Assembly: GCA_963840435.1 (NCBI GenBank) | Contig: CAWIYY010000015.1 | Coordinates: 42,105-106,104 of the forward strand | Length of the DNA: 64,000 nucleotides | Origin: an uncultured Acidimicrobiaceae bacterium | GTDB taxonomy: Bacteria > Actinomycetota > Acidimicrobiia > Acidimicrobiales > RAAP-2 | Direction: 5' to 3' | In this document: positions 23,915-50,020 of the stretch, piece after piece | Position numbering within the stretch: position 1 is the first letter of the stretch | Layout of the letters: each line of letters starts with the position of its first letter | Notes under the pieces: model-generated | The model's input: the letters and a program-made list of their open reading frames with translations, nothing else | Database searches by the model: none | What the model was told of the DNA's origin: nothing | Program-made: the position numbers and the translations under genes

Positions 23915-24117
23915 TGGACCCTCGACCCCGATGAGATTGCCGGACCGGATCACGTTAGCCTCCGAGTGCCGGCGTCCCGGCGGCGGCAATCCCGCTGTTC
24001 ACCTGGCCCTTTCCTTCCTTTAGCTGTTCGCTCGATCCCCCGGCTCCGGCGCCAGAGACCCGGTTCGGCCGGACCGGAGGGGTGTTGCGCCCGCCCGCAG
24101 CGCCATTCCAAACGCAA

Positions 24118-24135
24118 GGTGAACGTGAGGTGAAC
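24118..24135 (-). promoter_or_regulatory. PHO-box-like operator: two GTTCACC cores exactly 11 nt apart
   Basis: The plus strand reads GGTGAACgtgaGGTGAAC. The reverse complement is GTTCACCtcacGTTCACC. It sits in the divergent region between the GNAT operon and the Ig-repeat gene and is followed by AT-rich TAAATATTAAAT. Confidence 0.5.
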
Positions 24136-24325
24136 TAAATATTAAATGTTGATGATCTGGTGACAATCTGCCGATAGACCCTATGCATCGGCGGTGACGC
24201 CGACCCATAGTTGCGTGTAGGCGGGCTGGCAAACCCAATTCCGTCTTGGCGATAAGGCATTTCCACTTATTGGGGGAACGCGGCACTCGAAGGTGCCGTT
24301 TCCGGGACCACGGAGGCAAATAGGT

Positions 24326-26125
24326 ATGGCGAGAAGATTCGGTGCAGTACCTCTGCGGCTGGCGATCGGATCAGTAGTGGCCTTGTCGGGCCTCGCGCTG
24401 CTGGCAGCACCCGCGTCGGCAACCCCAGGAGTGACCACCACGACTGTGACGGAGTCGGCAGGAGCGGTGACTGGCTCTCCGGTCACGTTCACGGCGACGG
24501 TGACCAAGGGGGCGATGGTCCCGACCGGGACAGTGACCTTCACGGTCACGGGCAAGGACTCAGCGCCCTTCACATGCGATGGTGGGAACATCGCAAACCT
24601 GGGGCCCAATGGGAGCGGTCCCGGCTCGGTGGCCACGTGCGCCTTCAGTGGCGGTCTCCAGGCGAGTGATTCGCCCTACACGGTCGATGCGAGTTACAGC
24701 GGAGGCGGAACGCTCGGCCCGAGCAACGGTTCGCTCAGTCCCGCCACGATCACCCGGGGCTCGACGAGTACGGGCCTCCTTTCGTCGTCAAATCCGACGG
24801 TAACCGGTCAATCGGTCACCTTCACGGCGACGGTGGACCCGACGAGCCCATCGACCGGGTCCCCGAGCGGGTCGGTCACCTTTGCCATCGACGGAACGGG
24901 CGGCGGCAACGTGGTTTGCGACACGACCGGCGACGTGGTGCCCCTCAGCGGCGGCACGGCCTCGTGCGCCATTTCTGCGGGCCTATCTGCACAGTTCAGC
25001 CCGTACTCGGTGAGCGCTGCCTACTCCGGTGACACGAACTTCAAGCCGAGCACCGGCACGCTGTCCCAGACGGTGTCAAAGGCTGCCGTGACCCTCGGAC
25101 TGACGAGTTCGGTCGCACAGCCCGACACGGGGCAACCGATCAGCTTCACTGCGAGCGTCACTTCGGCGACTCCTCCGGGGTCCGGCAATCCAACTGGCAA
25201 CATCGTCTTCACGGTCATGGGGAACAACGTGTTGCCGGGTCAGCCCGGCTACACGGAGACCTGTGCCGGGGGTGACACGCAGCCGCTCTCAGGTGGCAGC
25301 GCCACGTGCAACTTCCCGACCGGACTGATCTCGAATCCGATCACCTTCACGGTGACGGCAACGCTCAAAGACGCAAACTTCTCGTCCTCCTCGGCTTCGC
25401 TCGTGCAGGACGTGAACAAGGCGCCAACGACGACGAGCATTAGCGGCGTGCCGGGCTCCATCGTTGCGTCGCAGCCATTCACCTTCACGGTCACCATCCA
25501 GACCAACGCTCCTGGTGGGAACCCGCCGACCGGCAACCTCGAATGGGCCGTGTGCGTGCACAACGCGCCCACGTGCTCGGGTCTGCCGGGTGGGACCTTC
25601 ACCCTGGGGAAGGCGACGAAGAAGGACATTGCGAACAATGAGCGGGTCCTCACCTACTCGGTTCCAGGCGTCTTGAGGCCCGGCTTCTACACCATCAACG
25701 CCAACTTCTCGGGTGACTCGGACTACACGCAAAGCAGTTCGGCAACCGGATTCATCCTGGTGAACAAGGCGCCGACGAGCATGCAGATCGTGCTTCAGCG
25801 CAACCCCTTGAAGCAGGGGAGCACCCCGGTCATCCGGGCCGCCGTGATCCCCAGCGCGGAGGCCAGCACGGGCCTAGGCGCCCCTCAGGGCACCGTCACC
25901 TTCACGATCACCGGTGCATCGGGCGACACGGTCAACTGTGAAGGGGGTTCGAACGTGATCACGATCAGCACCACCTCGTCGAACCAGGGCAAGGGGACGT
26001 GCACCATTGCGCCAGCCGACGTCACGGTCGCCGACAGCCCCTACGTGGTCGGGGTGCAGTACTCGGGCGACAGCAACTACGAACCCATAAGCGGCACCCA
26101 GATGGTCCACATCGTCAACCCGTAA
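24326..26125 (+). CDS. secreted protein made of about six bacterial Ig-like repeats
   Basis: ATG 24326 after GGAGG. Signal peptide ends LLAAPASA. Recurrent ~95-aa units carry VTFTATV / VTFTVTG / ITFTVTA / VTFTITG and C..G....C...L......Y.V.A.Y.GD.N patterns. Confidence 0.7.
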   Translation: MARRFGAVPLRLAIGSVVALSGLALLAAPASATPGVTTTTVTESAGAVTGSPVTFTATVTKGAMVPTGTVTFTVTGKDSAPFTCDGGNIANLGPNGSGPGSVATCAFSGGLQASDSPYTVDASYSGGGTLGPSNGSLSPATITRGSTSTGLLSSSNPTVTGQSVTFTATVDPTSPSTGSPSGSVTFAIDGTGGGNVVCDTTGDVVPLSGGTASCAISAGLSAQFSPYSVSAAYSGDTNFKPSTGTLSQTVSKAAVTLGLTSSVAQPDTGQPISFTASVTSATPPGSGNPTGNIVFTVMGNNVLPGQPGYTETCAGGDTQPLSGGSATCNFPTGLISNPITFTVTATLKDANFSSSSASLVQDVNKAPTTTSISGVPGSIVASQPFTFTVTIQTNAPGGNPPTGNLEWAVCVHNAPTCSGLPGGTFTLGKATKKDIANNERVLTYSVPGVLRPGFYTINANFSGDSDYTQSSSATGFILVNKAPTSMQIVLQRNPLKQGSTPVIRAAVIPSAEASTGLGAPQGTVTFTITGASGDTVNCEGGSNVITISTTSSNQGKGTCTIAPADVTVADSPYVVGVQYSGDSNYEPISGTQMVHIVNP

Positions 26126-26136
26126 ATGGTCAATAC

Positions 26137-26172
26137 CATGTAATTGGCATGTAATTACATGGAAACATGTAT
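26137..26172. promoter_or_regulatory. AT-rich motif cluster CATGTAATT-gg-CATGTAATTACATG-gaaa-CATGTAT
   Basis: Perfect 14-bp palindrome CATGTAATTACATG at 26148-26161, flanked by two further CATGTA(A/T)T copies. It lies in a ~90-nt low-GC island upstream of pstC. Confidence 0.5.
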
Positions 26173-26217
26173 TTAGTAGGTAACCTAAAGTTTACTGCAA
26201 CGACAGATTCCGGTAAC

Positions 26218-26281
26218 TCACGGCCGTTAGCGTGATCGGGTGCTCGAGCCAGAGTCCACCCAGATCACCTAACGGCCGTGA
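26218..26281 (+). promoter_or_regulatory. long imperfect hairpin that includes the pstC start codon
   Basis: TCACGGCCGTTAGcGTGATCGGGTG (26218-26242) pairs with CACCCaGATCACCTAACGGCCGTGA (26257-26281). The GTG start at 26278 lies in the 3' arm. Confidence 0.5.
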
Positions 26282-27267
26282 CTACTGAAACCCTGGTTCG
26301 CCCCAACACCGAGGCCCCGCGTCCCATCGTCATTCCGAACGATCGGTCGACCGAGGACAAGATCTTCCGAGGGGTGGCCCGAGCGGCAGGGTTCACTGTC
26401 TTCGCCATCCTCTTCCTCATCGGGTTCTTCCTGCTTCTTCGAGGGCTCCCGGCACTGCGGGCAGTGGGGTGGAAGTACTTCACGACGTCGGGCTACAGCA
26501 CTCTCCACAAGCCGTACCACTACGGGGCGGCTGCCCAGATGTTCGGGACCGTCTTGATCGCCCTTATCGCGGTGATCGTCGGTGTGCCTGTCGCCATCGG
26601 GACGGCGTTGTTCCTGACCGAGTACGCACCCCTCCGGGCCCGCCGAGCGCTGATCGCGATGGTCGACCTGGGCGCAGCCGTCCCCAGCATCATCTTCGGG
26701 CTCTGGGCGCTCCATGTGTTCCAACCTCAGATCACGGGGTCGACGACTTGGATCGTGCACCACTTGTCTTTCATCCCGATCTTCAAGGCGTCGACGCCGC
26801 CCTTCAACGGCTCCTTCTTCATTGCAGGTCTGATCGTCGGCATGATGATCGTGCCGATCGTGGCGTCGGTCTCCCGTGAGGTGTTCAGTCTCGCTCCACC
26901 CGGCGAACGGGAGGGAGCGCTGGCGCTGGGGGCAACTCGCTCCCAGATGATCAGGACGGTTGTCCTGCCCTTCGGGCGCGGGGGCATGATCGGCGCCTCC
27001 ATGCTCGGACTGGGACGGGCTCTCGGCGAGACGATCGCGGTCTACGTGATCTTGGGTCTCGACTTCACGATCTCACCGCATATCATGGAACACGGCGGCA
27101 CGTCGGTGGCGTCCTTCATCGCCGCAGAGTTCGGTGCAGGTGGGAAACTGGGTACGGCGGATCTGCTGATGCTGGGCTTCGTCCTCTTTACGTTCACTCT
27201 GATCGTCAACCTCGTGGCATCCATGATCGTCAACCGTTCTCGCAGCGGAAAGGGCGTCGACCTGTGA
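26278..27267 (+). CDS. pstC: phosphate ABC transporter permease PstC
   Basis: 329 aa, six-TM pattern, FLTEYAP and EAS/EGALALGAT permease loop. Followed by pstA and pstB with overlapping junctions. Confidence 0.9.
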   Translation: MTTETLVRPNTEAPRPIVIPNDRSTEDKIFRGVARAAGFTVFAILFLIGFFLLLRGLPALRAVGWKYFTTSGYSTLHKPYHYGAAAQMFGTVLIALIAVIVGVPVAIGTALFLTEYAPLRARRALIAMVDLGAAVPSIIFGLWALHVFQPQITGSTTWIVHHLSFIPIFKASTPPFNGSFFIAGLIVGMMIVPIVASVSREVFSLAPPGEREGALALGATRSQMIRTVVLPFGRGGMIGASMLGLGRALGETIAVYVILGLDFTISPHIMEHGGTSVASFIAAEFGAGGKLGTADLLMLGFVLFTFTLIVNLVASMIVNRSRSGKGVDL

Positions 27268-28433
27268 GCCTGACCGTCACCAATGGGGCCGCACCCGGGG
27301 ACCAGGTCACGCTGGCGACCAACGGCTCTCGCGGGATCGTCTCGCCGCCCCGCCGCACCCGTGACTTCGGCGCCAAAGGTCTGGCGCTCCTGGCCGCGTC
27401 CATCCTGTCCTCGTTCGCGGTCGTGTGGATCTTCTTCTACGAGCTCACGCTCCTTTCGGGCGCGTTCGGTTTCATCCTGTGCTGGTACGCCTGCTTCCTC
27501 GTCGTCTATTGGCTCGTGACGAACCTGAGCATCGACCGGGCCGCGGCCACCGACCGGGTCCTCACCGCAGTGGTTGCCTCGTGTGCTGCCCTGATCATCG
27601 GTCTACTCGGGTACATCATCGGCTGGGTCTTCGTGCGTGGTGTCGCGCATTTCACGGTCGGTTTTCTCTACCGCTCCATGCGCTACTACCAGCCCGCTGA
27701 TCCGCACCTCTTCAGCGACGTGGGCGTGAGCCAGGCGATCATCGGAACCCTCGAGCAGGTCGGCTTGGCTGCACTCATGGCAGTACCACTCGCCTTCTTG
27801 ACGGCCATCTTCCTCAATGAGGTCGGGGGGTGGGGCACCAGGTTCGTGCGGACAATCGTTACTGCGATGAGTGGCGTTCCATCCGTCGTGGCGGGTGTGT
27901 TCATCTACGCCGTTTTCATCGTGCCCCATGTGCTCGGCTATTCCGGCTTCGCCGCGTCGATGGCGCTCTTCGTCTTGATGCTGCCCTCCATCACGCGGAC
28001 CACTGAAGAGGTGCTGCGGGTGGTGCCCGGGGGGCTGCGCGAGGCCTCGTTGGCTCTCGGTGCGTCGGAGTGGCGCACCGTCCGCCAGGTGGTCCTGCCC
28101 ACCGCCCGCTCGGGACTCATCACCGCCGTTGTCCTGGGGATCGCCATCGCCGCCGGAGAGACGGCACCGCTGATCTTCACGGCGTTCGGGAACAGCAATC
28201 TGAACTACGACCCATTCCACGGGCCTCAGGCCGCGCTGCCCCTGGTGCTCTACGAGGACATCGCGACCGCGCAGCCGGCAGTAGTGCAGTTGGCGTTCAC
28301 GGCAGGGTTCGTCCTGCTGAGCCTCGTCCTCATCCTCTTCGTCATTGCGCGGCTGTTCGGCCGGCGGTCGACCCGTAAGGGTCGGGTTCGCCACGCCTTA
28401 GCCGCGCCCATCCGCTGGGTCAGGAGCATCTGA
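27264..28433 (+). CDS. pstA: phosphate ABC transporter permease PstA (long N-terminal extension)
   Basis: 389 aa. [21 protein letters not shown] is the PstA EAA loop. GTGA overlap with pstC. Confidence 0.9.
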
Positions 28434-29275
28434 TGGACACGTTCACCGATATCCGCCCGTCGTCTGATGCGGAACATCCGATCGTCGCTCCGGTCGGCCA
28501 ATCCGCTCAGCTCCAGGCACACGGGGTCTGCGCCTGGTTCAGCGGTCGTCTGGTGCTCGAGTCGGTCACGCTCAACATGGAGCGTTCACGGGTGACGGCC
28601 CTGATCGGCCCGTCAGGCTGTGGCAAATCGACCTTCCTCCGCATCCTCAACCGGATGCACGAGCTGGTGCCGGGGGCCCAGCTGGCCGGACGGGTCGAGC
28701 TCGACGGGGTGGACGTCTACGGCGGAGGTTTGCGGGCCACCGAGGCCCGCAAACAGATCGGCATGGTGTTCCAGAAGCCGAACCCGTTCCCGGCAATGAC
28801 GATCGAGGAGAACGTGCTCTCCGGCCTCAAGTTCAATCGGACAAAGCTGTCGTCGGCCGGCAAGCGGCTCGTGGTCGAGGAGATGCTGACCAAGGCCGGC
28901 TTGTGGAACGAAGTCAAGGATCGGCTGAACGAGCTGGGCGGCGGTCTCTCGGGCGGTCAGCAACAGCGGCTGTGTATCGCTCGCGCCCTTGCCGTACGCC
29001 CTCGGGTCCTCCTCATGGACGAACCCTGCTCCGCTCTGGACCCGACGTCGACCAACCGAATTGAGGAGACCATCCGAGAGATCGCCGATGAGGTCACGGT
29101 CGTGATCGTGACGCACAACATGCAGCAGGCTCAGCGGGTCTCGCACACGTGCGCATTCTTTCTGGCGGCGGAGGGCCAGCCGGGGCGGGTCATCGAATCC
29201 GGAGACACCGAGATGATGTTCGGAAACCCCTCCGATCCTCGAACCAGCGACTACGTCAACGGGAGGTTCGGATGA
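28433..29275 (+). CDS. pstB: phosphate ABC transporter ATP-binding protein PstB
   Basis: GPSGCGKST Walker [13 protein letters not shown] (PstB-specific), [20 protein letters not shown]. Confidence 0.95.
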
Positions 29276-30945
29276 GGCGTGTCGTCAGGTTCTCATGCCT
29301 CCTGGCCGCGCTGACCTTCGCGGCTTCGATCGCCTCGTTCGGCCTGAGCAGCCTGGGGTCCGGTTCAGCTGGTGCGGCGTATCCCCTGCTGACATCAACG
29401 GGGTCGAGTTTCGCCGGCGTCGCCATTTCAGAATGGCAGGGGCAGTTCAACGAGCTCGATGCCGGCAACATCAACTTCACCGTCACGTCCTCCGTCGTCG
29501 GCATGAACGACTTCTGCCAGAACACGGTCAACTTTGGCGCGACCGACATCGCCTACAGCACGAATCAGTCGAACTGCACGACGAGCCAGGTTCCCTACCC
29601 GTTCCAGTACATGCCCGACGTCGCCGGCGGACTGGCCTTCGAATACAACCTCACCGGGCAGAACGGCGAGGCGGTCAACAACCTGATTCTGAACGCAACG
29701 TTGCTCGAAGGGATCTTCACCGGTGCCATCACGAACTGGGACGATCCTTCCATCGCTGCGCTGAACCCCGACGTTCGCTTGCCGAACGAGGCCATCACGG
29801 CCTTCTACCGGGGAGACCCTTCCGGTGAGAACTACCTCCTCAGCGACTACTTCCTGCACACGAATCCGGGACCGATCACTGCGTTCCAGCAGTTGGCCGG
29901 AGTGCCCTCGACGCCAGGTCAGCCCTCGGCGACCTGGGCGGCCTTCCCCAACGGCAAGCCGACCAGCCTGCAGGGCCTGGTCAGTGTCGGCTCGGCAGAC
30001 AGCGCGGCGCAGGGCCCGAAGCAGACGCAAGGCGGCATCTCCTACGTCGAGACCGCCTATGCAAAGCAGGCTGACTTACCCGTGGCCTCGGTCGTCAACC
30101 AAGCCGGGTATGCCGTCCAGCCTGCGTCCTACAACGTCGCCGTCGCCCTGACCGGCGCCATCTTGTACCAGGACCTCACCCAGAACCTGGCCGGGGTCTA
30201 CACGAACCCGAATCCCAACGCCTATCCCATCTCGGCATACAGCTATTTCATCGCCCAGTGCGTGCCGTCCCAGGCGGCGACTCAGAACTTCGCTTGCGAC
30301 AGCTCAGGAAACGTCACACAGGTCACATCACAAGGTCAGGAGATGGCCGCATTCATCACCTTCGTGGCCTGCCTCGGCCAGGCGAATATGGCAAAACTTG
30401 GGTATTCGCCGATACCACCGAACCTGGTGGAAGACGATTTCCAGGCGGCGGGCCGGCTTGAGGGCGGGGTAGAACCACCGGCACCCACGCCGCAGAACTG
30501 CGACAACCCGTACATCACGGGGGCACTCCAACCGGTGGGTCAACCGACGGTGGTGGGGTCGGCCAATCCGGGATCGGCAGGGGCTGCATCAACCGCTGCC
30601 ACCACCGCTGCCGCCACGGCCGCCGCGGCAGCCGCGGCCCAGCACGCCCAAAACGGTGGGTTGAACGCGCCGCAGAGCGTCACGGGTTCTGGTGCGTCGG
30701 CGACCGCCACGGCCGGTGGTCCATCCAAAGCCACGAAGAAGAAAGCAGTGAACGCGCTGACCGACCCTGCCCTGGCCTACGACCGCCAGGACGGTTTGAT
30801 CGGCGCCGCCAACAGTGGGCTGGACAGCTGGTCGCCCACTGTCGTGGCTCTGTGGTCGCTGATCTTCGCCGTCTTCCTCGTGGGGGTGCCGTTGAGCGTG
30901 TGGTTCTGGCAACGAAGGCGAAAAGACTCGGGAGGCATGACGTGA
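29272..30945 (+). CDS. pstS: PstS-type phosphate-binding protein with Ala-rich linker and C-terminal transmembrane anchor
   Basis: ATG 29272 overlaps the pstB stop. Colinear with E. coli PstS: [59 protein letters not shown]. The C-terminus [32 protein letters not shown] is a TM helix plus a basic tail. Confidence 0.75.
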
Positions 30946-33662
30946 GAACGACACGGATCCGCGTTGCGGTCCGGCTAGCCGTCGCGTTCGCCATCGGTGC
31001 GGTGTGCCTACTGGCGTTCGCTCCAGGCCACACCAACGCCTCGGCTTCGAGTGTCGGAAGTGCAGAAACGGTGCTCCCTCACGCCTCCGCCTCGTGCCCT
31101 CCCGAGGCCAACTCGTGTGTGCAGATGCCGTTCGACGCTACGAATCCCAATGTCGCCACCATCTGCCCGGCTGGCTGCACGCTGACGGCAGGACCGGTCA
31201 GTGCGCTCGGGCAGGGACAGTCGGTCTATGTCGACGTGTCGGGTCTCGCGACCGGTGAGGAAGTCGCGCTTGCCATGTGCACCCTGCCGACAGGGACCAC
31301 GCCCGTGGCGCAACCACAATGCGCGTCGTATCTACCGGCGGGGCCGAGTTGTACCGAGAACTGCTCCGGGACGCCCAGCCCCCTCGAGTGGCAATACGAC
31401 ACCGCAGCATCGGCCGACACCGTCATGTCGATCGGGACCCAATACGACCCGAACGTCTCCGGCCAGACGCCCATTACCTCGCAGACATCCACCCAATACC
31501 AGTCGGGAGATCCGAATGCCTTCGGGTCTTTCTTCTGCGACAACGGGCCGGCCAATCCGTGCGGAATTGAGGTCATGGATCTCGGCCCCAACACGCAGGA
31601 CGTGGTGGGTGACGGTTTCCCGCCCCGTGTCGCCTTCAATTCCACGACCGCCAACACCGTCGTGATCCCGCTCAACTGGGCCGCCACCGGCTCGGGGTGC
31701 GGATCGGCGCCCATCATGCAGGTGGATGCCTCGTACAGCGCGGCCCAGTTCCTGCCTGCCGCCGGAGAGGCGACCTGCAATGGCACGGACGGTGTCGCCG
31801 TGCTGCCGACAAGCGTTCCATCGGTCGACGATCCCACGTGCACGTCCGGAACGGGCTCGTGTCCGATCGGGGACGTGATCAGTGGGAACACAGCAGCGTC
31901 GTTCACGGACGACCCGAACGACCCGGCCACACTGGCCGAGCTTCAGGCCGCCGGAGGGAAGTTCGCCTACATCCCGATCGCGGTCTCGGCGACAGAGATC
32001 GCGTTCGAGGGCGAGGCGGGTCAGAACGGATCTGGTGGCTCGATCTATCCCCTGAGCAATTACAACCTGACCCCGGCGCAGACTGCCGGCATCATGACGC
32101 AGCAGTGGACGTCCCCGATAGCGCAGCCCGGCTCGCCCGAGGACGATATCTGTGGACAGTTGGGTGCGACGGCTCCGTGCACAGAGACGCCGAACATAAC
32201 GCAGTCCCCACAGACTGTGTATGAAGTCAACGGCCAATCCGCCAACGTCGACGTCGAGGGCGTGGACGGCGGGGTACCCACGCCGGCCACATTCCCGTTC
32301 CTGAGTTATACCGGCACCTACGGCGATGGGTCGTTCAAGAGTCCACTGAAGAACTATCCGCAACTCACCGGCTACGCGCTGCTCAATCCGTGGCCAGGCG
32401 ACACCGGCCTCAGCACGGAATCGGTGACAGAATCAAACCTCGACGCGATGTTTCCGTCCACCGCGAGCGGCGCCTCCTATGAGACCTCGGGTTGGATCTG
32501 TGGCGCACCGGACAAGTCCTATTCGGTCACGCTTCCCGGCGGGACGCAGGCGACGGTGAGTGATCTCGAGAGCGGTCCGCAGCTCTTGGCGAACGGCGAG
32601 CAGGATCCGATCGAAATGACCCAAGTCGACGGTGTGTGGACGCTCAACCCCAGCGTGACCGAGAACTTTCAAGCGAATCCGAGCGGCTGCGAAGCGCTGT
32701 CCAGCCTCCCCACGGACTTCGCGCCACAGACGTCGGCCGGTGGTGGGATCACCACCTATGCGCCTTCGAGCCAGCCCCTGACGGCGGCGCACGCCATCTC
32801 GGGAAATGCCAGCAAGGGGCTCTTGGGGTTTGCCTTCACCGCTATGGACAGTTCGGAGGCGGACTTCTATGGCCTCCTCCCTGCCAACCTGCAGAACGCC
32901 TCGGGAGCTTTCGTTGCCCCGTCAGCACCGGCCATCACGGCGGCTCTGAACGATGCGACCCCGGCGAAGAACGGCACACTGATCCCGAGCTTCACCAACG
33001 CAACGGACGCGGCTGCCTATCCAATGCCGATGGTCACCTACGCGCTGATCTCGACCAGTCCGCAACCAAGCACTGCTCAGGCCGCTCAGCTCACCGACAT
33101 GCTGACCAACCTGGTGAAGTACTCCAATACAGGCGGTGCCGGTACCAGCGAGCCACTGCCTCCGGGTTACGTCCCGCTCCCGACCAACCTCTACCAGCAG
33201 GCGCTGGGGGAGATTGCCAGCGATGTCATCGCCCCCGACGGTCAGCCCGTTGGCGGCGAGGCCGCAGCGCCGCCACTGCATTCCGCATCTGGCTCCGCTC
33301 CCGGCGCGTCGACCTTGCCCGACGATTCATCGAGCGAGTTCTCGCCTGATTCGTTCGGTGGCGAACTCGGGGCACCTTTCGGCCTGGCCGTCGAGAAGGC
33401 GGCTGGGAACAGTCCGGCAAAAGACTCCTCAGGTTCCCCGTCCGGCGGCGGGGGCTTGAACCCGATCGGGCGCTTCATCGCCGTGACACTGGGTGACAAC
33501 CGGTTCCTGGTTCCCGGTCTACTTCTGTTGGCCCTGATCTGTCTGGTCGCTGGACCGCTGCTTTACATGTCTCCATCGCTACGGAAAAAACCGGCTACTG
33601 CCACGGATGGGGGTGTGGACGGCGTGGGCGGCGAGGGTGACGGCCCGCCGCCCGTGGAGTGA
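30942..33662 (+). CDS. large (906 aa) surface protein with PstS/PBP-like segments and a C-terminal transmembrane anchor
   Basis: GTG 30942 overlaps the upstream stop (GTGA). Signal peptide. AGGKFAYIPIAVSATEIAF and AAAYPMPMVTYALIS...PPGYVPLP resemble PstS-fold segments. C-terminal FLVPGLLLLALICLVAGPLLYM followed by LRKK. Confidence 0.6.
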   Translation: MRTTRIRVAVRLAVAFAIGAVCLLAFAPGHTNASASSVGSAETVLPHASASCPPEANSCVQMPFDATNPNVATICPAGCTLTAGPVSALGQGQSVYVDVSGLATGEEVALAMCTLPTGTTPVAQPQCASYLPAGPSCTENCSGTPSPLEWQYDTAASADTVMSIGTQYDPNVSGQTPITSQTSTQYQSGDPNAFGSFFCDNGPANPCGIEVMDLGPNTQDVVGDGFPPRVAFNSTTANTVVIPLNWAATGSGCGSAPIMQVDASYSAAQFLPAAGEATCNGTDGVAVLPTSVPSVDDPTCTSGTGSCPIGDVISGNTAASFTDDPNDPATLAELQAAGGKFAYIPIAVSATEIAFEGEAGQNGSGGSIYPLSNYNLTPAQTAGIMTQQWTSPIAQPGSPEDDICGQLGATAPCTETPNITQSPQTVYEVNGQSANVDVEGVDGGVPTPATFPFLSYTGTYGDGSFKSPLKNYPQLTGYALLNPWPGDTGLSTESVTESNLDAMFPSTASGASYETSGWICGAPDKSYSVTLPGGTQATVSDLESGPQLLANGEQDPIEMTQVDGVWTLNPSVTENFQANPSGCEALSSLPTDFAPQTSAGGGITTYAPSSQPLTAAHAISGNASKGLLGFAFTAMDSSEADFYGLLPANLQNASGAFVAPSAPAITAALNDATPAKNGTLIPSFTNATDAAAYPMPMVTYALISTSPQPSTAQAAQLTDMLTNLVKYSNTGGAGTSEPLPPGYVPLPTNLYQQALGEIASDVIAPDGQPVGGEAAAPPLHSASGSAPGASTLPDDSSSEFSPDSFGGELGAPFGLAVEKAAGNSPAKDSSGSPSGGGGLNPIGRFIAVTLGDNRFLVPGLLLLALICLVAGPLLYMSPSLRKKPATATDGGVDGVGGEGDGPPPVE

Positions 33663-34696
33663 TGGACATCGCTACCTCGGCGCACGACGCCGATCAACTG
33701 TCCGTCTCGACCCAGGAGGGAAGCCCCGAGCCCGACGTGGGGACCCCCGAGTCGCCTGAGAGCGGCGGGAACGGGGTGTCGGGACCGGACAGCTCCGCTA
33801 CTGCACCACCTGGTGTCGGCGAGTCGTCCCGGGCCCTCCTGGCCGCTCTTGGACGCGCCCTCGCGGTGTTGTCCCGACCACGGGTGGCCGGAGTCCTGAT
33901 CGGCGGACTGGGCGTCCTCATTCTGCTATTGCTCGGCTACATCTACGTGTTCACGCCGCTGAGTGCCGCTCGGTCGCAGCACTCGTTGTTGCAACAGATC
34001 CAAGCCCAGCCGGCTCAGACCTATCAACTGGCCGAGGGCAAGGCGCCACCGGAGGGCAGCCCTCTGGGCGTGCTCGAGATCCCGGCGCTCCATCTGGACC
34101 AAGCGATGGTGCAGGGAACCGACTCTCAGGATTTGCAGAAGGGTCCCGGACACATGCCGACCTCGTCGCTCCCCGGTCAACGGGGCAATGCGGTGATCGC
34201 CGGACGCCGTGCCACCTACGGGGCGCCGTTCGGATCTATCGGTTCGCTTCGCAGGGGCCAGATGATCAAAGTGATCGACGGTCTTGGCACGTTCCACTAC
34301 AGGGTCACGAGCGTGATCTACGTGCAGGGTGGCGCCCACGACGTCGTGACCCAGTCGGCCAACAATCGTCTCACGCTTGTCACTGCCGGGTCGGGTTTCT
34401 GGCCACAGGGCCGGCTCGCCGTCATCGCATCGCTCCAGGGAAAGCCCTTCCCTCATCTGAGCGCGACCCACTTTGCGGCACCGACATCGGAACTGGGACT
34501 CTCTGGCGATGCGGCTTCGGGATTGCTCTTCGTTCTGTGGAGCCTGTTGTTTCTTATGATTCTTTCGGTGTCGGTCTGGCTCCTGCGCCGCTGGTCACAA
34601 CCGGTCGTGGTGCTGCTCCTGTCCGTGCCCGTGCTCCTGCTTGTTGCCATTTTCGCCTGTGAGAGCTTCGTCGGTGCCTTGCCGGCAACGGTCTGA
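33659..34696 (+). CDS. class-E-sortase-like membrane protein lacking the catalytic His and Cys (pseudo-sortase)
   Basis: LEIPALHLDQAMVQGTDSQDLQKGPGHMPTSSLPGQRGNAVIAGRRATYGAPF...NNRLTLVTAGSGF...GRLAVIASL is colinear with SrtE-type sortases. AGHR is replaced by AGRR (R183, nt 34205-34207) and TLxTC by TLVTA (A243, nt 34385-34387). Confidence 0.75.
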   Translation: MMDIATSAHDADQLSVSTQEGSPEPDVGTPESPESGGNGVSGPDSSATAPPGVGESSRALLAALGRALAVLSRPRVAGVLIGGLGVLILLLLGYIYVFTPLSAARSQHSLLQQIQAQPAQTYQLAEGKAPPEGSPLGVLEIPALHLDQAMVQGTDSQDLQKGPGHMPTSSLPGQRGNAVIAGRRATYGAPFGSIGSLRRGQMIKVIDGLGTFHYRVTSVIYVQGGAHDVVTQSANNRLTLVTAGSGFWPQGRLAVIASLQGKPFPHLSATHFAAPTSELGLSGDAASGLLFVLWSLLFLMILSVSVWLLRRWSQPVVVLLLSVPVLLLVAIFACESFVGALPATV

Positions 34697-34703
34697 GGCG
34701 ATC

Positions 34704-35228
34704 ATGAGCTCGTTCAAATGTCAGCCGAGGCGCCGGGCCGCCTTGTTGGCCGTGTCGGGGGCCGCACTTGCGCTGGCTGCCTGCAGCTCGCCCAGTGCCA
34801 CCGCATCGGGCCAACATCACGCGGACGGCCGGACCTCCACGAGTTCGACAGGAGCTTCGGCCATTGATGCGCCCATGAAAGTCAGCTTCGGCACCGGCTC
34901 CATTGGCCAGCCCGATCCCACGACCACGGTGCCGAACGAACGCGGCAATCCCATTCCCCCGATCCTTGCCCCGGGGCAGAACATCATCATCTCTTCGTCC
35001 GGTTGCATGCCCGAGACCCTCGAAGCCAATGTGAGCGCACCGGTCGTGTGGACCAACCTCTCGGGCAAGCCACAGCGGGTCATCTTCGAGAATTTCCCGG
35101 TCGACTCCGGAACGATCCCGGCTGGGGGCACGTTCACCTGGACAACCGCCGACGCCGTTGCTATGGAGTACAAGCTTGAGCCGTCGGGCAAGCTCTGCAA
35201 GCTGCTGATGAACCCGGTGCAGCCCTGA
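34704..35228 (+). CDS. lipoprotein of unknown function
   Basis: ATG 34704, 8 nt after the sortase-like gene. Signal peptide with lipobox ALALAAC. High GC3. Confidence 0.55.
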   Translation: MSSFKCQPRRRAALLAVSGAALALAACSSPSATASGQHHADGRTSTSSTGASAIDAPMKVSFGTGSIGQPDPTTTVPNERGNPIPPILAPGQNIIISSSGCMPETLEANVSAPVVWTNLSGKPQRVIFENFPVDSGTIPAGGTFTWTTADAVAMEYKLEPSGKLCKLLMNPVQP

Positions 35229-35610
35229 TTGTTCTGCGGGAGCTGAAGTTCGCGCACCGTTTACCTCTGACTCATACGGTGTCCCCGTAGGCAGGAGCAC
35301 GAGGATAGTGACACCTGCAGTGCAAGTGCCCAGACGATGGGCGCTGGAGCTGCACTTTTGCGCCGCGACTTGGCCAAAAGCCAAACGGACGCATGGGGTA
35401 AGGAAGTGATCACCAATAGTTCTTCGCCCCGGTGTCGGGAATTCGCGGAACGTTTACGTTGCAACCGTAACGTGCACCACGGCGATGGGTCCCGAACGCC
35501 TCCGCACTTCGCAGATGCTGGACGGATCCTGTCCCCAGGGACCAAGCGCCACCAACCGGTGTCGGAATGCCGGTACGGAGATGAACCAACCAAAAGGAGA
35601 CCCAACCAAA

Positions 35611-37461
35611 ATGCTGAAGAAGCTGATGGCGCGCCAGCGCGCGCTGAAGCTAGGCGCAGGGTTGCTGGGGGCGTCCGTATTGGCAGTGGGCTTTGCTAGC
35701 CCAGCCTTTGCGACGGCGTCGTCCGGCGGCAACGTTGCCTCGGCGAACTACAACATCTATCAGGGCGGATCGAACACGACCTACCTGATGATGCAGCAGC
35801 TGGCGGACCTGTTCAACCAGGCACCCGGTTGCGACCTGGCCGTGGTGAGCGGCAAGATCCAGCCTCTCGACTACGAGTGCCCCGGCACCGGGTCCAGCTT
35901 GTCTGTGCCGATCACGACGGCCGCGACGGGCGCCACGACGAAGAAGAGCGAGACGATAACGCTCGTACCGGCGACCACCAACGCGAACATCTTCGCCAAC
36001 GACCCGATCAGCGACTCGGGTGGTGCCATCAAGGCGGGAACGATCGTCACCAGCGTGAACCAGAGCACGAACACCATCACAATCAGCGTCGCAGCGAAGA
36101 AGACGGTGGCGTCCGACAGTCTCACGGTGACCACCACCCCGGCGGTCGGTGAGAACGGCTTCACGACGTTCTCGCAGGAAAACCCCTTCAACGACCTCCT
36201 CATTGAAGAGCCTGCGTTGGGATCCTCCAACGGCATCCAGGAGCTCGAGGACCAGAATGGCCACGCCGCCGGCGCGTTGTCGGCCGGCGTCAACGTTGCG
36301 CCGCTTGACGTTGCCCGCTCCTCTCGTGCGCCGAACCTGACCTCATCCAGCTCCAATGGCGACGACAAGGGTCTCAACTTCGTCGCCTACGCGATGGACG
36401 CTGTGACGTGGGTCCACTGGACCAAGGTGAAGGGTACGGCGACCCCGTCGTCCACCCTCACCAACTTGACCGTCCCGCAACTCACCGCCATCTGGCAGAA
36501 CAAGCCCTGCACCTCACTGATCGATGGCACGAACGAGCCCTCGGCCAACTGGGGATGCTACGGCGGGAGCAAGAACGCACCCATCGCGCTCTACATCGCG
36601 CAGAACGGATCTGGGACGGAGTCCACCTGGCAGAGCCTGCTCGGCCTGACTGCTGGCAGCCCCGCGCCCAAGTTCCCCTTCGGCGGTGAGGACCCGAACC
36701 ACATCATCTTCGAGAACGAGACGGCGTCGATCCTGAACAACGGGGACGAAGCCAATGCCATCTTCTTCTTCTCCTTCGGGAAGTTCGAGACCATCTGTGC
36801 GCCGAACCCGTCCTTCTGCTCGGGTTCCTCCACCAGCTCGATGGCCTTGGGGAAGATCGGCGGCATCGCGGCGAGCAAGACCACCATTGCGGCCCAGCTC
36901 CCAGGGGCCAACACGACGGGGTCGAACCCGCAGCTGTTCCCGGGCGACCGTCTGCTCTTCAACGTGTACTCCGATGGCTCCAACCCGCAGATCAACGCTT
37001 CCTCGCCAGCTTCGCTCAATGCGGTCAGCGAGGACGGGTTCCTGTGTAAGCCTTCGAGCAACACGGACATCGACCCGAACACGGGCTTGACCTACCGCAG
37101 CGAGATCAACAAGGTGATCTCCGCGCAGGGTTTCTTCCCGCTGCCACTGATGGTGGAGAACGGTCAGAACGGACAGCAGAACGAGGCGGCATTCGGGCCC
37201 TTCGGCACGACGTCGACGCTCAACACTCCTCCCGGTATCCCGAACCCGGCGTGGAGCGACGGCCTTTCTGCCTCTAACTACAACGCGGCCAACGAGACCA
37301 CTCCGGCTCCGAACCAGGACACGGATGACTCGGCGGTCAACGGAACCAGCTACACGAACGTCTACTTCGACGGCAGCTCGACCACCACCCAGGTGGCCTC
37401 GCCGAGCAGCCCGGTCGGGTACTGCCTGACCGAATCGACGGACGGCAACAACACCAACTAG
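35611..37461 (+). CDS. secreted PstS-superfamily (PBP_like_2-type) substrate-binding protein, enlarged
   Basis: ATG 35611, 10 nt after AAAGGAGA. Signal peptide ends ASPAFA. GGSNTTYLMMQQLADLF, LGSSNGIQEL, LDVARSSR and IAQNGSGTESTW are colinear with B. subtilis-type PstS motifs (GSGtG, D..aSR, R.dGSGT). Confidence 0.65.
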   Translation: MLKKLMARQRALKLGAGLLGASVLAVGFASPAFATASSGGNVASANYNIYQGGSNTTYLMMQQLADLFNQAPGCDLAVVSGKIQPLDYECPGTGSSLSVPITTAATGATTKKSETITLVPATTNANIFANDPISDSGGAIKAGTIVTSVNQSTNTITISVAAKKTVASDSLTVTTTPAVGENGFTTFSQENPFNDLLIEEPALGSSNGIQELEDQNGHAAGALSAGVNVAPLDVARSSRAPNLTSSSSNGDDKGLNFVAYAMDAVTWVHWTKVKGTATPSSTLTNLTVPQLTAIWQNKPCTSLIDGTNEPSANWGCYGGSKNAPIALYIAQNGSGTESTWQSLLGLTAGSPAPKFPFGGEDPNHIIFENETASILNNGDEANAIFFFSFGKFETICAPNPSFCSGSSTSSMALGKIGGIAASKTTIAAQLPGANTTGSNPQLFPGDRLLFNVYSDGSNPQINASSPASLNAVSEDGFLCKPSSNTDIDPNTGLTYRSEINKVISAQGFFPLPLMVENGQNGQQNEAAFGPFGTTSTLNTPPGIPNPAWSDGLSASNYNAANETTPAPNQDTDDSAVNGTSYTNVYFDGSSTTTQVASPSSPVGYCLTESTDGNNTN

Positions 37462-37501
37462 CAGTCCCCGCAGTAACTGCATTGCACTGAAGGGCCGTAG
37501 C

Positions 37502-37533
37502 CCGGGCTGCGGGGTTCATTCCCCGCAGCCCGG
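37502..37533 (+). terminator. 13-bp perfect stem-loop after the PstS-like gene
   Basis: CCGGGCTGCGGGG-ttcatt-CCCCGCAGCCCGG, 41 nt after the stop at 37461. No U-tract. Confidence 0.6.
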
Positions 37534-37572
37534 TGCCGGCTCTCAAGGTGTGCAAGTGATCCGAAGTACCGA

Positions 37573-37601
37573 GGAGGCCCGGCCGAGGAGGCCGGGCCTC
37601 C
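37573..37601 (+). terminator. second 12-bp perfect stem-loop
   Basis: GGAGGCCCGGCC-gagga-GGCCGGGCCTCC. Confidence 0.45.
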
Positions 37602-37696
37602 TGCGCGCTCGGACTCCACAGTCCCCGCAGCCATGCTCGGCAGCTCCGTACCCTGAGCGCCCATCGCGGCAAGGCGGAAGAAGTACAGTCGCCGGA

Positions 37697-38467
37697 GTGG
37701 CCAGGCACGCCAAGCGTCGCCGCAAGTCCCCGGGCCCGGGTGATCGGGACTGGAGCGACGAGCGCCGCTTCGACACGGACCTGCGCGCCGTCGAGCCCTC
37801 ACCGGAGAGTGTCGCCGCCGAACCCGATTGGTTTTCGCCTTCTGTGGCCGGCGAGGACGTGTATGCAGCGCGCCAGGAGGTTCCGCTCGCCGCGATGTTG
37901 ATGCTCGGGGAGCACGCCTGGCAGCGGATCGACGGGATGGGGATGGCCCGACAGGCTCTCGAGGCGCCATCGACCGGCGACCAGCGTGTCGACCTGAGCA
38001 ACGAGGAGCGCTTTCTGCTGGCCAACGGGCGCGCCTGGTGCCTCGTCGTGCATTCTGATCTCGGGCACGGGGGCCGGCGCGACGATCCGATCGTCCTGGC
38101 TGACGCCCAGCGCCATGTCGAGCAGGCGCAGGCGGTGGCCGAGCGTGACGTCCACCGGGCCCAGGTCCAGATGACCACGGCCCTCATCGCTTTCCGCCGA
38201 GATGGGCCGCACCGCGCGCTGCATCAGGCACAAACGGCCGTAGACGCGTTCGCGGTGTTGCCCGACACCGAGCGCAGCGGGCAGAGCCAGGGGGTGGCCA
38301 GCCTGGCCGTGCTCACCTTGGCGCTGGTCACTGCGGCTTCTGGGACAACAGAATCCGGGCTGAACCTGGCCCGGGCTGCCGGGGCTCTCCGACCGCCTCT
38401 CGACGTGGATCAGGCCGCCTTCGGGGCGCTCTTAAAGGAGCTGTCGGAGTGGATTCCGGCGCATTGA
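37697..38467 (+). CDS. hypothetical protein
   Basis: The frame of ORF 37550..38467 has strong GC3 bias from ~37700 onward. I moved the start to GTG 37697 because the 5' part of the track ORF is occupied by the two hairpins. No recognisable motif. Confidence 0.4.
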   Translation: MARHAKRRRKSPGPGDRDWSDERRFDTDLRAVEPSPESVAAEPDWFSPSVAGEDVYAARQEVPLAAMLMLGEHAWQRIDGMGMARQALEAPSTGDQRVDLSNEERFLLANGRAWCLVVHSDLGHGGRRDDPIVLADAQRHVEQAQAVAERDVHRAQVQMTTALIAFRRDGPHRALHQAQTAVDAFAVLPDTERSGQSQGVASLAVLTLALVTAASGTTESGLNLARAAGALRPPLDVDQAAFGALLKELSEWIPAH

Positions 38468-38684
38468 ACCGGCCCGCGGACTAGGCCACCCACCTGGGGC
38501 TCTATAGTTCACCTACCTGTTACGCCGCTGTTGCGGGTGGTTCATCTGTTCCACCTAGTCTCGGCGGCTGACATGCGGCCGGTTGCAACCATGAGTCGGC
38601 CGCCCATCGGGGCCGTGTACCCCGGATCGTCCGGCGAACGCAACGTCGCCGAAGGGACGAAACCGGGCGGAGGGCAGTCACAGC

Positions 38685-40466
38685 ATGACGACACAGCGAG
38701 ACAGGGGCAAGCGCTGGCCGTTCACGTGGCACCGCAGCCGAGCCGCGTCGCGGGGCTCAGTGTCGATGCTCGACACCATGCAGCTGACCGCGATCATGAC
38801 GGATCCGACGCCTCGCACGGTTCCACCCGAACATGGCGGGGCCAACGAACTCCTCGGTGTCGTGAAGTCCGACGGAGAGTTCAAACACTCGGTGGGCTGG
38901 CTGAGTGCACCGCGCCATCTTTCGGAAGCCGTACGCCAACGGATTCAGGCGCGACAGAACCTCTCCGTGCGTCGGCTGGTACTGGCCATCGGCAGCCTGA
39001 TCCTCATCACCGCTGGTCTCGTGGCAGCGACCATGATCGCCACGACGAGTGCAACGCCGCCCCAGACATCGCACTCGAGTTTCGGCGCCGTGGCCCATCG
39101 ACTCGTTATGAGCCCGAGCCATTTGGAACTGGGACCGGCCACCACGAATCCCCTACCCGCGAAGCCGCTTGTGGAGCTGGCCAATCCGACATCGGCCCAC
39201 GAGGTCTTCGGGTATGTCCCTTACTGGTCGCTCCCGGACTGGCAGAGCTTCCCTTACGGAGACTTCTCGACGGTCGCGTACTTCAGTTTGAACGTAAATC
39301 CCAACGGCTCAATTGAGCAGTCGGGCCCGGGCTGGAATGGCTACAACAGCGAGGACTTCGTGAACATGATCGATGCCGCCCACCAGGCGGGCGACCGCGT
39401 CGTGCTGACGGCCAACGATTTCTCCCAGGCTTCGCTCTACACGCTGACCCACGATCCAAACGCCGGCATCGTGCTCGGAACGGAGTTGCTCGAGGTGGTG
39501 CAGACCAAGGACCTCGACGGCGTAAACCTCGACCTCGAAGGCACTGGCAGTGCCGACCAAGCTGGTCTGGACCACCTGGTCGGCCAGGTCGACTTCATGT
39601 TGCACAGCGCCGATCCCCACTATCAGCTCACGATGTCCACGTACGCCTCATCGGCCGGCGATCCGAACGGCTTCTACGACATCTCGGGCCTCTCGCGATG
39701 GGTCAACGCCTTCTTCGTGATGGCCTATGACGTCAGCCAGGGATCGACGGGGGCCGGCGGTGGAAGCGACGAGGCTGACATCGACCAGTACGTGTCGAAG
39801 GTCGGCGCCTCCAAGGTGATCCTCGGGTTGCCCCTCTTCGGCGACGACGAACCAACCAGCGGGCCTGCGCTCGGTGACCCCTCGACCGGTCCGCCCGTCC
39901 CGGTGACCTACGCCCAGGCCATGGGAGACGGTCCCACCTACTGGAATGCAGCGACGGACACGGCCTGGACGTCCTACCAGTCGGGCGGTCAGTGGCATCA
40001 GGTCTTCTTCGACAACGCCAACACCCTCGAAGGACAAGTCCAGCTTGCGGCCCGGTCGAACTTGCTCGGGACCGGCGTCTGGGCTCTCGGAATGGAAGGA
40101 AGTGACAACTCGGTGCTCAGCTTGCTCAACGGGCGACCCGTATCCCTGCGCACGCCCCCGGCGGGCTTGACCACATCGGCTGCGACGGCTCGCACCAGCC
40201 CGAAGAAGGCCAAGGCAGGCGGCGGGGGGCAGAGCGCCACATCTTCGACGACGGTCCCCTCCGTTGCCGGAAGCGGAGGACACCGCCGTCGCGGGAACCG
40301 ATCGACGACATCGACCCGCCCGTCGACCACGACGTCCAGTGCACCGGGCACGACGACCTCGACGACCTCCGGATCCCTGCCGACGTCGAGCTCGACGACG
40401 ACCCTGACCACAGGGGACTCGGGCAGTGCCGGGAGCACCACCACGTCCACGGCGATCCCGCAGTGA
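38685..40466 (+). CDS. membrane-anchored glycoside hydrolase family 18 (chitinase-like) protein with Ser/Thr-rich tail
   Basis: TM LVLAIGSLILITAGLVAATMIA. FGYVPYWS...VAYFSL...LDGVNLDLEG is the GH18 DGxxxDxE catalytic motif. The last ~130 aa are S/T/G/P-rich. Start uncertain. Confidence 0.7.
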   Translation: MTTQRDRGKRWPFTWHRSRAASRGSVSMLDTMQLTAIMTDPTPRTVPPEHGGANELLGVVKSDGEFKHSVGWLSAPRHLSEAVRQRIQARQNLSVRRLVLAIGSLILITAGLVAATMIATTSATPPQTSHSSFGAVAHRLVMSPSHLELGPATTNPLPAKPLVELANPTSAHEVFGYVPYWSLPDWQSFPYGDFSTVAYFSLNVNPNGSIEQSGPGWNGYNSEDFVNMIDAAHQAGDRVVLTANDFSQASLYTLTHDPNAGIVLGTELLEVVQTKDLDGVNLDLEGTGSADQAGLDHLVGQVDFMLHSADPHYQLTMSTYASSAGDPNGFYDISGLSRWVNAFFVMAYDVSQGSTGAGGGSDEADIDQYVSKVGASKVILGLPLFGDDEPTSGPALGDPSTGPPVPVTYAQAMGDGPTYWNAATDTAWTSYQSGGQWHQVFFDNANTLEGQVQLAARSNLLGTGVWALGMEGSDNSVLSLLNGRPVSLRTPPAGLTTSAATARTSPKKAKAGGGGQSATSSTTVPSVAGSGGHRRRGNRSTTSTRPSTTTSSAPGTTTSTTSGSLPTSSSTTTLTTGDSGSAGSTTTSTAIPQ

Positions 40467-41257: not shown

Positions 41258-41389
41258 TCGGCTCGACATTGTCCTGGTCAGACGCAGGGTCATGGCTCTC
41301 GATTCCCCTCACGATCCGGTGCGGTCTCTTCGACGGCTTCCCGCTCCACGTAGTAGAAGTGCGGGTCACCATGGGACGACGTTCCTGCC

Positions 41390-42508: not shown

Positions 42509-42527
42509 CGCTCGGGTCCCTGGGCGG

Positions 42528-42960: not shown

Positions 42961-43144
42961 TTCGGATCTCGTCGAGGGTCGGAAGAAAGGGAGGGCTCGT
43001 GCGGCCTCCCGGGCGGGCGGGCCGTCGCGGTTCGCCCTCCGGTCGCGCAGTCGACACCTGCCGTTCAGCCGAGACCCCTGGTGAGGACGCGGCGGGGAGG
43101 TGGATCCGGTACCGTGCCATGAGGGGCATGGAAAGGAGAACTCG

Positions 43145-43450: not shown

Positions 43451-43463
43451 GGCCTGGCCGGGA

Positions 43464-49968: not shown

Positions 49969-50020
49969 TTTCCCCGCCAGGCTCCGGTCACGTCGGCCCG
50001 CACGGCACGCCCGTGCACCC

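Follow-up and report, generated by a model that had tools for sequence, protein, structure and literature searches.

A pst locus of uncultured Acidimicrobiia with a predicted C-terminally anchored PstS, two enlarged PstS-fold proteins and a sortase paralogue lacking catalytic residues

The pst gene cluster and its products

The DNA analysed here is a 64,000-nt stretch of a contig (CAWIYY010000015.1, assembly GCA_963840435.1) from an uncultured Acidimicrobiaceae bacterium, referred to below as the window; its G+C content is about 65%. Between positions 26278 and 37461 the window carries eight genes on the plus strand (Table 1). The first three specify the permeases PstC and PstA and the ATPase PstB of a phosphate ABC transporter. 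They are followed by genes for a PstS with a C-terminal membrane anchor, a 906-amino-acid (aa) protein with a PstS-fold domain (hereafter the giant), a member of the sortase superfamily devoid of catalytic His and Cys (the pseudo-sortase), a small lipoprotein and a third PstS-fold protein.

The genes from pstC to the lipoprotein gene are separated by six consecutive junctions, each consisting of an overlap or of 7 nt. The pstC and pstA genes share 4 nt (GTGA) and pstA and pstB a single nucleotide (TGATG); pstB and the PstS gene meet at ATGA, the PstS and giant genes at GTGA, and the giant and pseudo-sortase genes at GTGATG. The initial annotation had described these seven genes as tightly joined, and re-reading of the junctions bore this out, except that the spacer between the pseudo-sortase and lipoprotein genes, given as 8 nt, was off by one: the true ATG of the lipoprotein gene lies at 34704, leaving 7 nt. 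The start codons chosen are backed by alignments of orthologues. The third PstS-fold gene begins 382 nt 3′ of the lipoprotein gene and has its own Shine-Dalgarno sequence, AAAGGAGA. An Rfam scan of the interval 24000-39000 at an E value of 0.1 returned no RNA family, so that the 382-nt gap holds no known riboswitch or leader. Scans for sigma-70 promoters and intrinsic terminators were not usefully above background, and the latter found no terminator between the lipoprotein gene and the third gene. A single transcript spanning all eight genes is unlikely, because the third gene is preceded by a conserved promoter-like region of its own (see below). Among about 50 open reading frames scanned across the whole window, none encodes a PhoU (PF01895), which agrees with the earlier remark that no phoU is adjacent, and none contains a further PstS domain.

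The transporter core is readily assigned. PstC and PstA pass the cut-offs of the equivalog models TIGR02138 (244 bits against 196) and TIGR00974 (225 bits against 193), the match in PstA covering aa 98-368 behind an N-terminal extension of about 95 aa. For PstB, TIGR00972 was clearly the best match (E 8.5e-96; 320 bits against a cut-off of 343). The PstS encoded after pstB matched PF12849 (E 1.8e-23), TIGR00975 (E 3e-49; 168 bits against a cut-off of 205) and solved PstS chains in the PDB (E 7e-24). In an alignment to Escherichia coli PstS (1ixg), eight of the nine pocket residues compared are kept (residue here/residue in E. coli: S46/T10, F47/F11, S74/S38, D92/D56, R180/R135, D182/D137, S184/S139 and G185/G140), the sole difference being Glu186 at the position of T141; all nine positions (S46-E186) are invariant in 15 orthologues. 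An acidic residue occupies the T141 position in Mycobacterium tuberculosis PstS-1 as well. Taken by itself, the identification of this core as a Pst importer is very likely correct.

This PstS begins with a simple signal peptide that contains no lipobox. The PstS domain (aa ~40-420) is followed by a low-complexity linker rich in Ala, Gly, Thr and Ser (29 Ala per 90 residues), by one predicted hydrophobic transmembrane (TM) helix at aa 519-547 and by the residues RRRK. Sequence and TM prediction thus agree with the original description of a PstS that comes after pstB, lacks a lipobox and ends in an Ala-rich linker and a C-terminal TM segment. The operon had been called atypical on these grounds. 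This holds against textbook operons but not within the lineage. An exhaustive homologue search with the PstS returned 267 representatives at E <1e-30, and among the 110 long relatives in the best 150 (50% clustering) at least 67 carry a hydrophobic helix at the C-terminus, compared with only 5 whose N-terminus is lipobox-like. In view of these counts, pstCAB followed by a C-terminally anchored PstS appears to be the regular design of the lineage.

The giant starts with a signal peptide or TM segment, followed by a neocarzinostatin-like immunoglobulin (Ig)-like domain and by a PstS-fold domain with large insertions. A disordered linker rich in Gly, Ser, Ala and Pro leads to a TM helix (aa 850-880) and a basic tail; between the disordered stretch and the helix lies a conserved segment, ...ITVTLGDxRF(F/L)VP.... 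The protein has no lipobox and no Pfam match. An AlphaFold model was built from 55 homologues (predicted local distance difference test score, pLDDT, 69). When this model was compared to the PDB with Foldseek, the best 20 matches were all PstS proteins (E 3e-7 to 5e-5, target TM-score 0.59-0.71), and the next were the apoproteins of C-1027 and neocarzinostatin, which match the N-terminal Ig-like domain (target TM-score 0.6-0.73). The family profile matched M. tuberculosis PstS-1 (E 1.7e-5) and the sequence itself matched TIGR00975 (E 1.2e-10 over aa 645-755); the sequence alignment to PstS spans the C-terminal lobe only.

The third protein has a Sec-type signal peptide, no membrane anchor and no lipobox; a beta-rich insertion interrupts its PstS family-2-like core, and a beta domain forms the C-terminus. 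It has no Pfam match itself; its shorter relatives (450-500 aa) pass PF12849. The top 26 PDB matches of its AlphaFold model (pLDDT 78) are all phosphate-binding proteins (E 7e-8), and the family profile matches Vibrio cholerae 1twy (E 1e-9) with YiAqnGSGT aligned to sReDGSGT. The residues A-Q-N-G-S-G-T stand opposite R-E-D-G-S-G-T of 4gd5 and 1twy, the S-G-T part of the phosphate motif being kept. Invariant in the family are the helix-dipole motifs GGSNTT, RSS and GSGT and an Asp equivalent to D56. Models and PDB profile matches therefore give a PstS fold for both enlarged proteins, as had been proposed from the sequence; since both match phosphate-binding proteins best, a periplasmic-binding-protein fold is present in each.

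The pseudo-sortase matched PF04203 (E 8.6e-21) and class E sortases in the PDB (E 1.6e-12), and scored 89 bits against the cut-off of 160 of the class E model NF033747. The sortase motifs AGHR and TLxTC correspond to AGRRAT and LTLVTAGSG here: the catalytic His is replaced by Arg183 and the Cys by Ala243, and Arg252 is kept. As the catalytic His and Cys are absent, the protein was not classed as a sortase enzyme. Both substitutions occur in all 17 full-length orthologues of the clade. The family reaches far beyond this clade. Of the best 120 of 953 matches, more than 110 show both replacements; the His position is occupied by Arg in about 112 and by Lys in one. The Cys is missing in 113 of the 119 that could be aligned, with Ala in this clade and mostly Ser elsewhere; both His and Cys are found in only six, each at most 37% identical. 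The substitutions are thus fixed while the rest of the sortase domain is strongly conserved. Decay into a pseudogene was considered and rejected, the gene being intact and highly conserved in every locus. Two active sortases (with His and Cys) that were inspected adjoin cytochrome c maturation genes and not pst. Since the nearest active sortases lie in unrelated contexts, the pst-linked form is regarded as a dedicated paralogue, and the idea that the active relatives are pst-linked too, as expected from an ancestral wall-anchoring of PstS, was discarded. In public records the protein is labelled "sortase A" or "class E sortase"; its fold places it in the sortase superfamily, but it should carry neither label.

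The pseudo-sortase comprises a disordered N-terminus, TM1, the sortase-fold domain, TM2, TM3 and a C-terminal LPATV; from the positive-inside rule, the sortase domain and the C-terminus are predicted to be extracellular. The last residues (34676-34693) read ...GALPATV, and LPxT plus one residue ends the protein in 101 of the best 120 matches; the nearest active relatives end in LLPAN(I/Y). LPxT is a recognition motif of sortases and is here predicted to lie outside, near the dead active site. This end may be a self-docking substrate mimic.

The C-terminal tails of the anchored PstS and of the giant (30828-30945 and 33489-33662) are built alike, and the design is kept across distant lineages (orthologues in L023-L034 of the loci compared below): an interfacial Trp or other aromatic residue is followed by a TM helix, with [GP]P[LV] close to the inner end, and by three to six Arg or Lys. 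Neither tail contains LPXTG or LAXTG or matches any known sorting-signal model. For want of such a motif, and with the neighbouring sortase homologue dead, the tails were rejected as true sortase signals; most likely, the C-terminal helix is a permanent anchor.

The small lipoprotein has a lipobox, LALAAC, in which A26 and C27 are nearly invariant among relatives. A profile search of the PDB gave seven sub-threshold matches, five of them to cupredoxins (nitrite reductase domain, plastocyanin, amicyanin; E 0.035-0.9). As the copper ligands are not conserved, the protein is probably a metal-free beta-sandwich, possibly cupredoxin-like.

Table 1. Genes of the pst locus and PHO-box-like repeats in the window
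Feature	Position	Strand	Basis or remark
pstC, phosphate ABC transporter permease	26278-27267	+	TIGR02138, PF00528
pstA, phosphate ABC transporter permease	27264-28433	+	TIGR00974
pstB, ATPase	28433-29275	+	TIGR00972 best match, PF00005
Tail-anchored PstS, 557 aa	29272-30945	+	PF12849, TIGR00975, PDB PstS chains
Giant, 906 aa	30942-33662	+	PstS fold by AlphaFold/Foldseek; family profile
Pseudo-sortase, 345 aa	33659-34696	+	PF04203
Small lipoprotein, 174 aa, lipobox LAAC	34704-35228	+	No Pfam or NCBIfam match
Third PstS-fold protein, 616 aa	35611-37461	+	AlphaFold/Foldseek; profile match to 1twy
PHO-box-like pair, GTTCACCTCAC GTTCAC (GTTCACCTCACGTTCAC); best of the window	24119-24135	-	Strict pattern; same position occupied in L005
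PHO-box-like repeats, GGTAACCTAAA GTTTAC; 83 nt upstream of pstC	26179-26195	+	Loose pattern
PHO-box-like repeats, GTTCGCGCACC GTTTAC; just 3′ of the lipoprotein gene	35248-35264	+	Strict pattern
Second PHO-box-like site, TTCGCGGAAC GTTTAC (GTTCACAGAACGTTTAC in relatives)	35442-35457	+	Alignment of 16 regions

Conservation of the unit and its link to phosphate

Relatives of the giant were found only in uncultured Acidimicrobiaceae/Acidimicrobiales genomes, namely 20 species representatives, mostly metagenome-assembled genomes (MAGs) from Danish soil. In all 20 the order is identical, Big_3_5 gene-pstC-pstA-pstB-PstS-giant-pseudo-sortase-lipoprotein-third, with giants that are 40-66% identical; frameshifts in the long-read assemblies L002/L013, L004, L016 and L019 (loci are numbered L) account for partial matches in the survey. 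Outside this clade, eight loci were reached through relatives of the pseudo-sortase, the third protein or PstS, and the same module is present in seven of them (L023, L024, L025, L026, L027, L032/33 and L034), with pseudo-sortases about 32-44% identical. Their sources are Acidimicrobiales, Acidimicrobiia and one MAG labelled Dormibacteraeota. Besides pstCAB, these distant loci encode a long PstS (500-605 aa) that ends in a C-terminal helix and an Arg cluster, a giant (624-857 aa), a pseudo-sortase, a small protein of 127-166 aa and a third PstS-like protein of 374-558 aa; some of the giants match PF00960 or PF12849, the former being recorded in L025 and L026. A synteny survey of related genomes thus upholds the arrangement seen in the window, which is far beyond chance; judged from gene order and protein similarity, the unit is conserved across a bacterial class.

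In L024 and L027 the genes are divided between two divergent halves, pstCAB-PstS and giant-pseudo-sortase-(small protein)-third, L024 having no small gene between the pseudo-sortase and third genes. Two sub-modules were defined because the split falls exactly between PstS and the giant. The giant and pseudo-sortase genes overlap across the loci examined, except for a short gap in L025, and are regarded as the tightest gene pair. The eighth locus is a short contig (L031) with pstB and a tail-anchored PstS. After its PstS gene lies, in place of giant and pseudo-sortase, a gene for a 416-aa secreted protein of unknown family (L031:3231-4481).

The surroundings of the distant loci include genes for PhoX, polyphosphate kinase (PPK), CHAD/CYTH proteins, a second, canonical PstS and two-component systems. 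PhoX adjoins the module in L024 and two-component genes flank it in L025 and L027; no phoU was found within about 9-10 kb in seven related loci annotated with Pfam. Within the window, pairs of GTTCAC/GTTTAC hexamers with 11-nt spacing occur at four sites (Table 1). The strict pattern, GTTYRC-N5-GTTYAC, gave 2 matches in 64 kb, where 0.02 are expected; a looser version was scanned as well. The best pair lies outside the eight-gene locus, between the glycan-synthesis genes and the divergently oriented Big_3_5 gene. The site upstream of pstC is part of a block, GGTGTAACCCTCCGTTCACCCC...CCGGTAAT...TAGCTTGAT, that is conserved in 14 orthologous upstream regions. The site just 3′ of the lipoprotein gene is conserved in orthologous regions and lies upstream of the third gene in L005, L010, L020 and L023, and the second site in this interval lies within the most conserved block when 16 regions upstream of the third gene are aligned. 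Equivalent PHO-box-like sites are found in promoter regions of the distant modules L023, L024 and L027. The PHO boxes of Streptomyces consist of two 11-nt direct repeat units with the core GTTCACC (PMC4415409). The repeats of the window match this published core and 11-nt design and are candidate PHO boxes. Together, the repeats and the phosphate-metabolism neighbours support a predicted tie of the unit to phosphate.

The AT-rich stretch upstream of pstC (26137-26161) also contains a perfect 14-bp palindrome, CATGTAATTACATG, at 26148-26161, with a further copy of CATGTAATT 11 nt upstream of it. Within the clade, only the closest relatives (L003, L006, L008 and L009) share the palindrome, which could be the site of a dimeric regulator.

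A putative phosphate importer with an accessory surface module

On balance, we favour the view that the locus encodes a Pho-regulated Pst importer together with a conserved accessory surface module of four genes, at the centre of which stands a non-catalytic sortase paralogue. PstC and PstA would form the channel, and PstB would power it, in a high-affinity phosphate importer of the single-membrane envelope of Acidimicrobiia. The tail-anchored PstS would be the working receptor: a flexible Ala-rich linker of about 100 residues and a C-terminal helix would replace the lipid anchor and let the PstS domain swing onto PstCA. The giant with its Ig-like stalk, the pseudo-sortase, the lipoprotein and the third protein probably make up one membrane-attached complex, in which the giant and the third protein may add capture, relay or specificity for phosphate or a phosphorylated ligand. 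For the dead sortase we postulate a non-enzymatic part in this complex, as a peptide-binding holder or an assembly factor. The protein it contacts directly is most likely the giant; in every locus examined, the giant gene overlaps that of the pseudo-sortase or sits immediately upstream of it. Transcription would probably start from a PhoP/RegX3-type promoter upstream of pstC and from a second one upstream of the third gene. A more specific proposal, which we offer tentatively, is that the old peptide groove of the pseudo-enzyme, perhaps together with its own LPxT C-terminus, holds the PstS-fold receptors with C-terminal anchors together as a multi-receptor complex for phosphate capture on the cell surface. 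The initial annotation had likewise suggested a multi-receptor capture apparatus. The PstS fold of all three proteins speaks for such a device; its operation is conjecture, the full phosphate ligand set being recognised in the tail-anchored PstS alone and the third protein lacking the Arg.

Several observations weigh against the favoured view. In the third protein the phosphate-binding Arg is replaced by a nearly invariant Ala (Ala330) and its partner Asp by Asn, and neither this protein nor the giant need bind phosphate. The model of the giant is of moderate confidence only. Direct profile-profile comparison with the tail-anchored PstS family gave only 38% probability for the giant and was not significant for the third family (E 0.16); since this approach failed, the homology of both proteins was established through structure and PDB profiles. 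PstB and the tail-anchored PstS score below the curated NCBIfam cut-offs. Ser at the Cys position of most out-of-clade pseudo-sortases leaves room for non-canonical chemistry. Lastly, L031 has a tail-anchored PstS and no pseudo-sortase, from which it appears that the core can work without the accessory module.

In an alternative explanation, the giant and the third protein bind phosphorylated or anionic polymers or organophosphates (wall glycopolymers, polyphosphate, phosphoesters) for scavenging or wall attachment. The loss of the Arg-Asp pair in the third protein, the large insertions and extra beta domains of both proteins, the position of the locus within a cell-envelope glycan gene cluster and the PhoX gene adjoining the module in L024 would all suit such ligands. 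However, the GGSNTT, RSS and GSGT motifs and the D56-equivalent Asp are invariant in the third family and fit a small oxyanion, and the glycan neighbourhood is not conserved in the distant loci. We consider this explanation unlikely.

It could also be argued that the sortase paralogue has retained enzymatic activity through non-canonical chemistry, such as a Ser nucleophile, and releases the PstS-fold proteins or attaches them to the wall by processing their tails. These tails are indeed laid out like sorting signals, with a conserved juxtamembrane stretch, the [GP]P[LV] helix and the basic cluster; the sortase-fold domain is highly conserved, its Arg is mostly kept, and most out-of-clade members have Ser in the Cys position (LTLVTS). 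Yet the Ala found there in the present clade leaves no nucleophile, about 112 of the best 120 members have Arg in place of the general-base His, the catalytic Arg itself is replaced by His or Gln in some, and neither tail shows a sorting motif or a match to a sorting-signal model. Retained catalysis is accordingly viewed as quite unlikely, and a holder function is preferred for the pseudo-sortase.

Just as doubtful is a role for the accessory module in sensing external phosphate or the status of the transporter and in reporting it to a PhoR-type kinase, in place of the missing PhoU. The lack of phoU in the window and near the annotated related loci and the two-component genes flanking the module in L025 and L027 point in this direction, and the remodelled pockets would suit a regulatory more than a transport ligand. 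Against this, PhoU is cytoplasmic whereas these proteins are extracellular, the conserved unit contains no kinase gene, phoU may sit elsewhere in the genome, and translational coupling to pstB and PstS suggests a structural rather than a regulatory stoichiometry. Finally, the promoter-like region of the third gene and the example of L031 might be taken to mean that the accessory genes are mere neighbours of the pst operon with no functional link, which is highly improbable given the overlapping stop and start codons, the PHO-box-like repeats found upstream of the third gene as well, and an order identical in 20 of 20 clade genomes and kept in seven distant loci, down to about 32-44% pseudo-sortase identity.

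Relation to known systems and genomic surroundings

The core belongs to the PstSCAB family, as known from E. coli and M. tuberculosis: it includes orthologues of PstC, PstA and PstB, and its PstS has kept the phosphate ligand set. The M. tuberculosis cluster encodes three PstS lipoproteins and so provides a precedent for several PstS paralogues in one cluster; PstS-1 and PstS-3 are among the PDB matches. The present locus differs from these systems in the order pstC-A-B-S instead of pstSCAB, in the absence of a nearby phoU and in a receptor held by a C-terminal helix instead of an N-terminal lipid. It differs also in having two greatly enlarged PstS-fold proteins with pockets that appear altered, and a sortase paralogue and a small lipoprotein fixed in the unit. 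It is thus a variant of a well-known transporter with an accessory gene set that appears to be undescribed. The literature searched contained no description of a pst-linked inactive sortase, of a C-terminally anchored bacterial PstS or of the eight-gene module, which is not proof of their absence.

The best PDB and NCBIfam matches of the pseudo-sortase are class E sortases such as Streptomyces coelicolor SrtE (5go5/5go6), with which it shares the beta-barrel domain, the N-terminal membrane anchor, the Arg and the motifs GN..(I/L)AG.R and LTL.T. Unlike these enzymes, it has Arg for His and Ala (Ser in other lineages) for Cys, scores below the class E cut-off, has two additional C-terminal TM helices and an LPxT C-terminus, and is always linked to pst, with no LAXTG/LPXTG substrate gene nearby. 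The three-part layout of the tails and the adjoining sortase-superfamily gene recall the sorting signals of the LPXTG/sortase, PGF-CTERM/archaeosortase (used by archaeal binding proteins) and PEP-CTERM/exosortase systems, but the tails lack a signature motif and the sortase-like neighbour lacks the catalytic residues. The Ig-like fold of the enediyne apoproteins (neocarzinostatin, C-1027; PF00960) recurs in the N-terminal domain of the giant. In contrast to these apoproteins, the domain is part of a membrane-anchored 906-aa protein, no enediyne biosynthesis genes are found nearby, and the NCBIfam match of the giant reaches 18 bits against a cut-off of 86.

Acidimicrobiia, most of them uncultured, abound in soil, freshwater, oceans and wastewater. 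Their phosphate acquisition has so far been inferred from textbook models, which this locus does not fit. The locus defines a class-wide, eight-gene variant of Pst, bacterial substrate-binding proteins held by C-terminal helices, and a large family of predicted catalytically dead sortases fixed in phosphate operons. Annotators gain a concrete correction of the "sortase A" and "class E sortase" labels, experimentalists a case in which the recruitment of a pseudo-enzyme to a transporter can be tested, and ecologists a marker module for phosphate scavenging in Acidimicrobiia. If true, the proposed holder function would give the sortase fold a role in nutrient uptake that has no counterpart in the systems described.

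Apart from the pst locus, the window contains genes for cell-envelope glycan enzymes and central metabolism. Gene clusters flank the locus at 300-24000 and 41000-52500. The best PHO-box-like pair of the window separates the gene for the Big_3_5 surface protein from a large glycan-synthesis cluster, whose products include sulfotransferases, uridine diphosphate (UDP)-glucose dehydrogenase, epimerases, glycosyltransferases, a DegT aminotransferase and a GT4/WecA-like enzyme. From this position, and by analogy with teichuronic acid in Bacillus subtilis, one might speculate that phosphate starvation switches on the synthesis of a phosphate-free anionic wall polymer. The third PstS-fold gene is followed (37550-41257) by three genes whose order is kept in all 20 genomes of the clade and not in the distant loci. 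They encode a 305-aa protein without family match, a chitinase-like protein of family GH18 whose tail is rich in Ser and Thr, and a putative lipoprotein of 264 aa.

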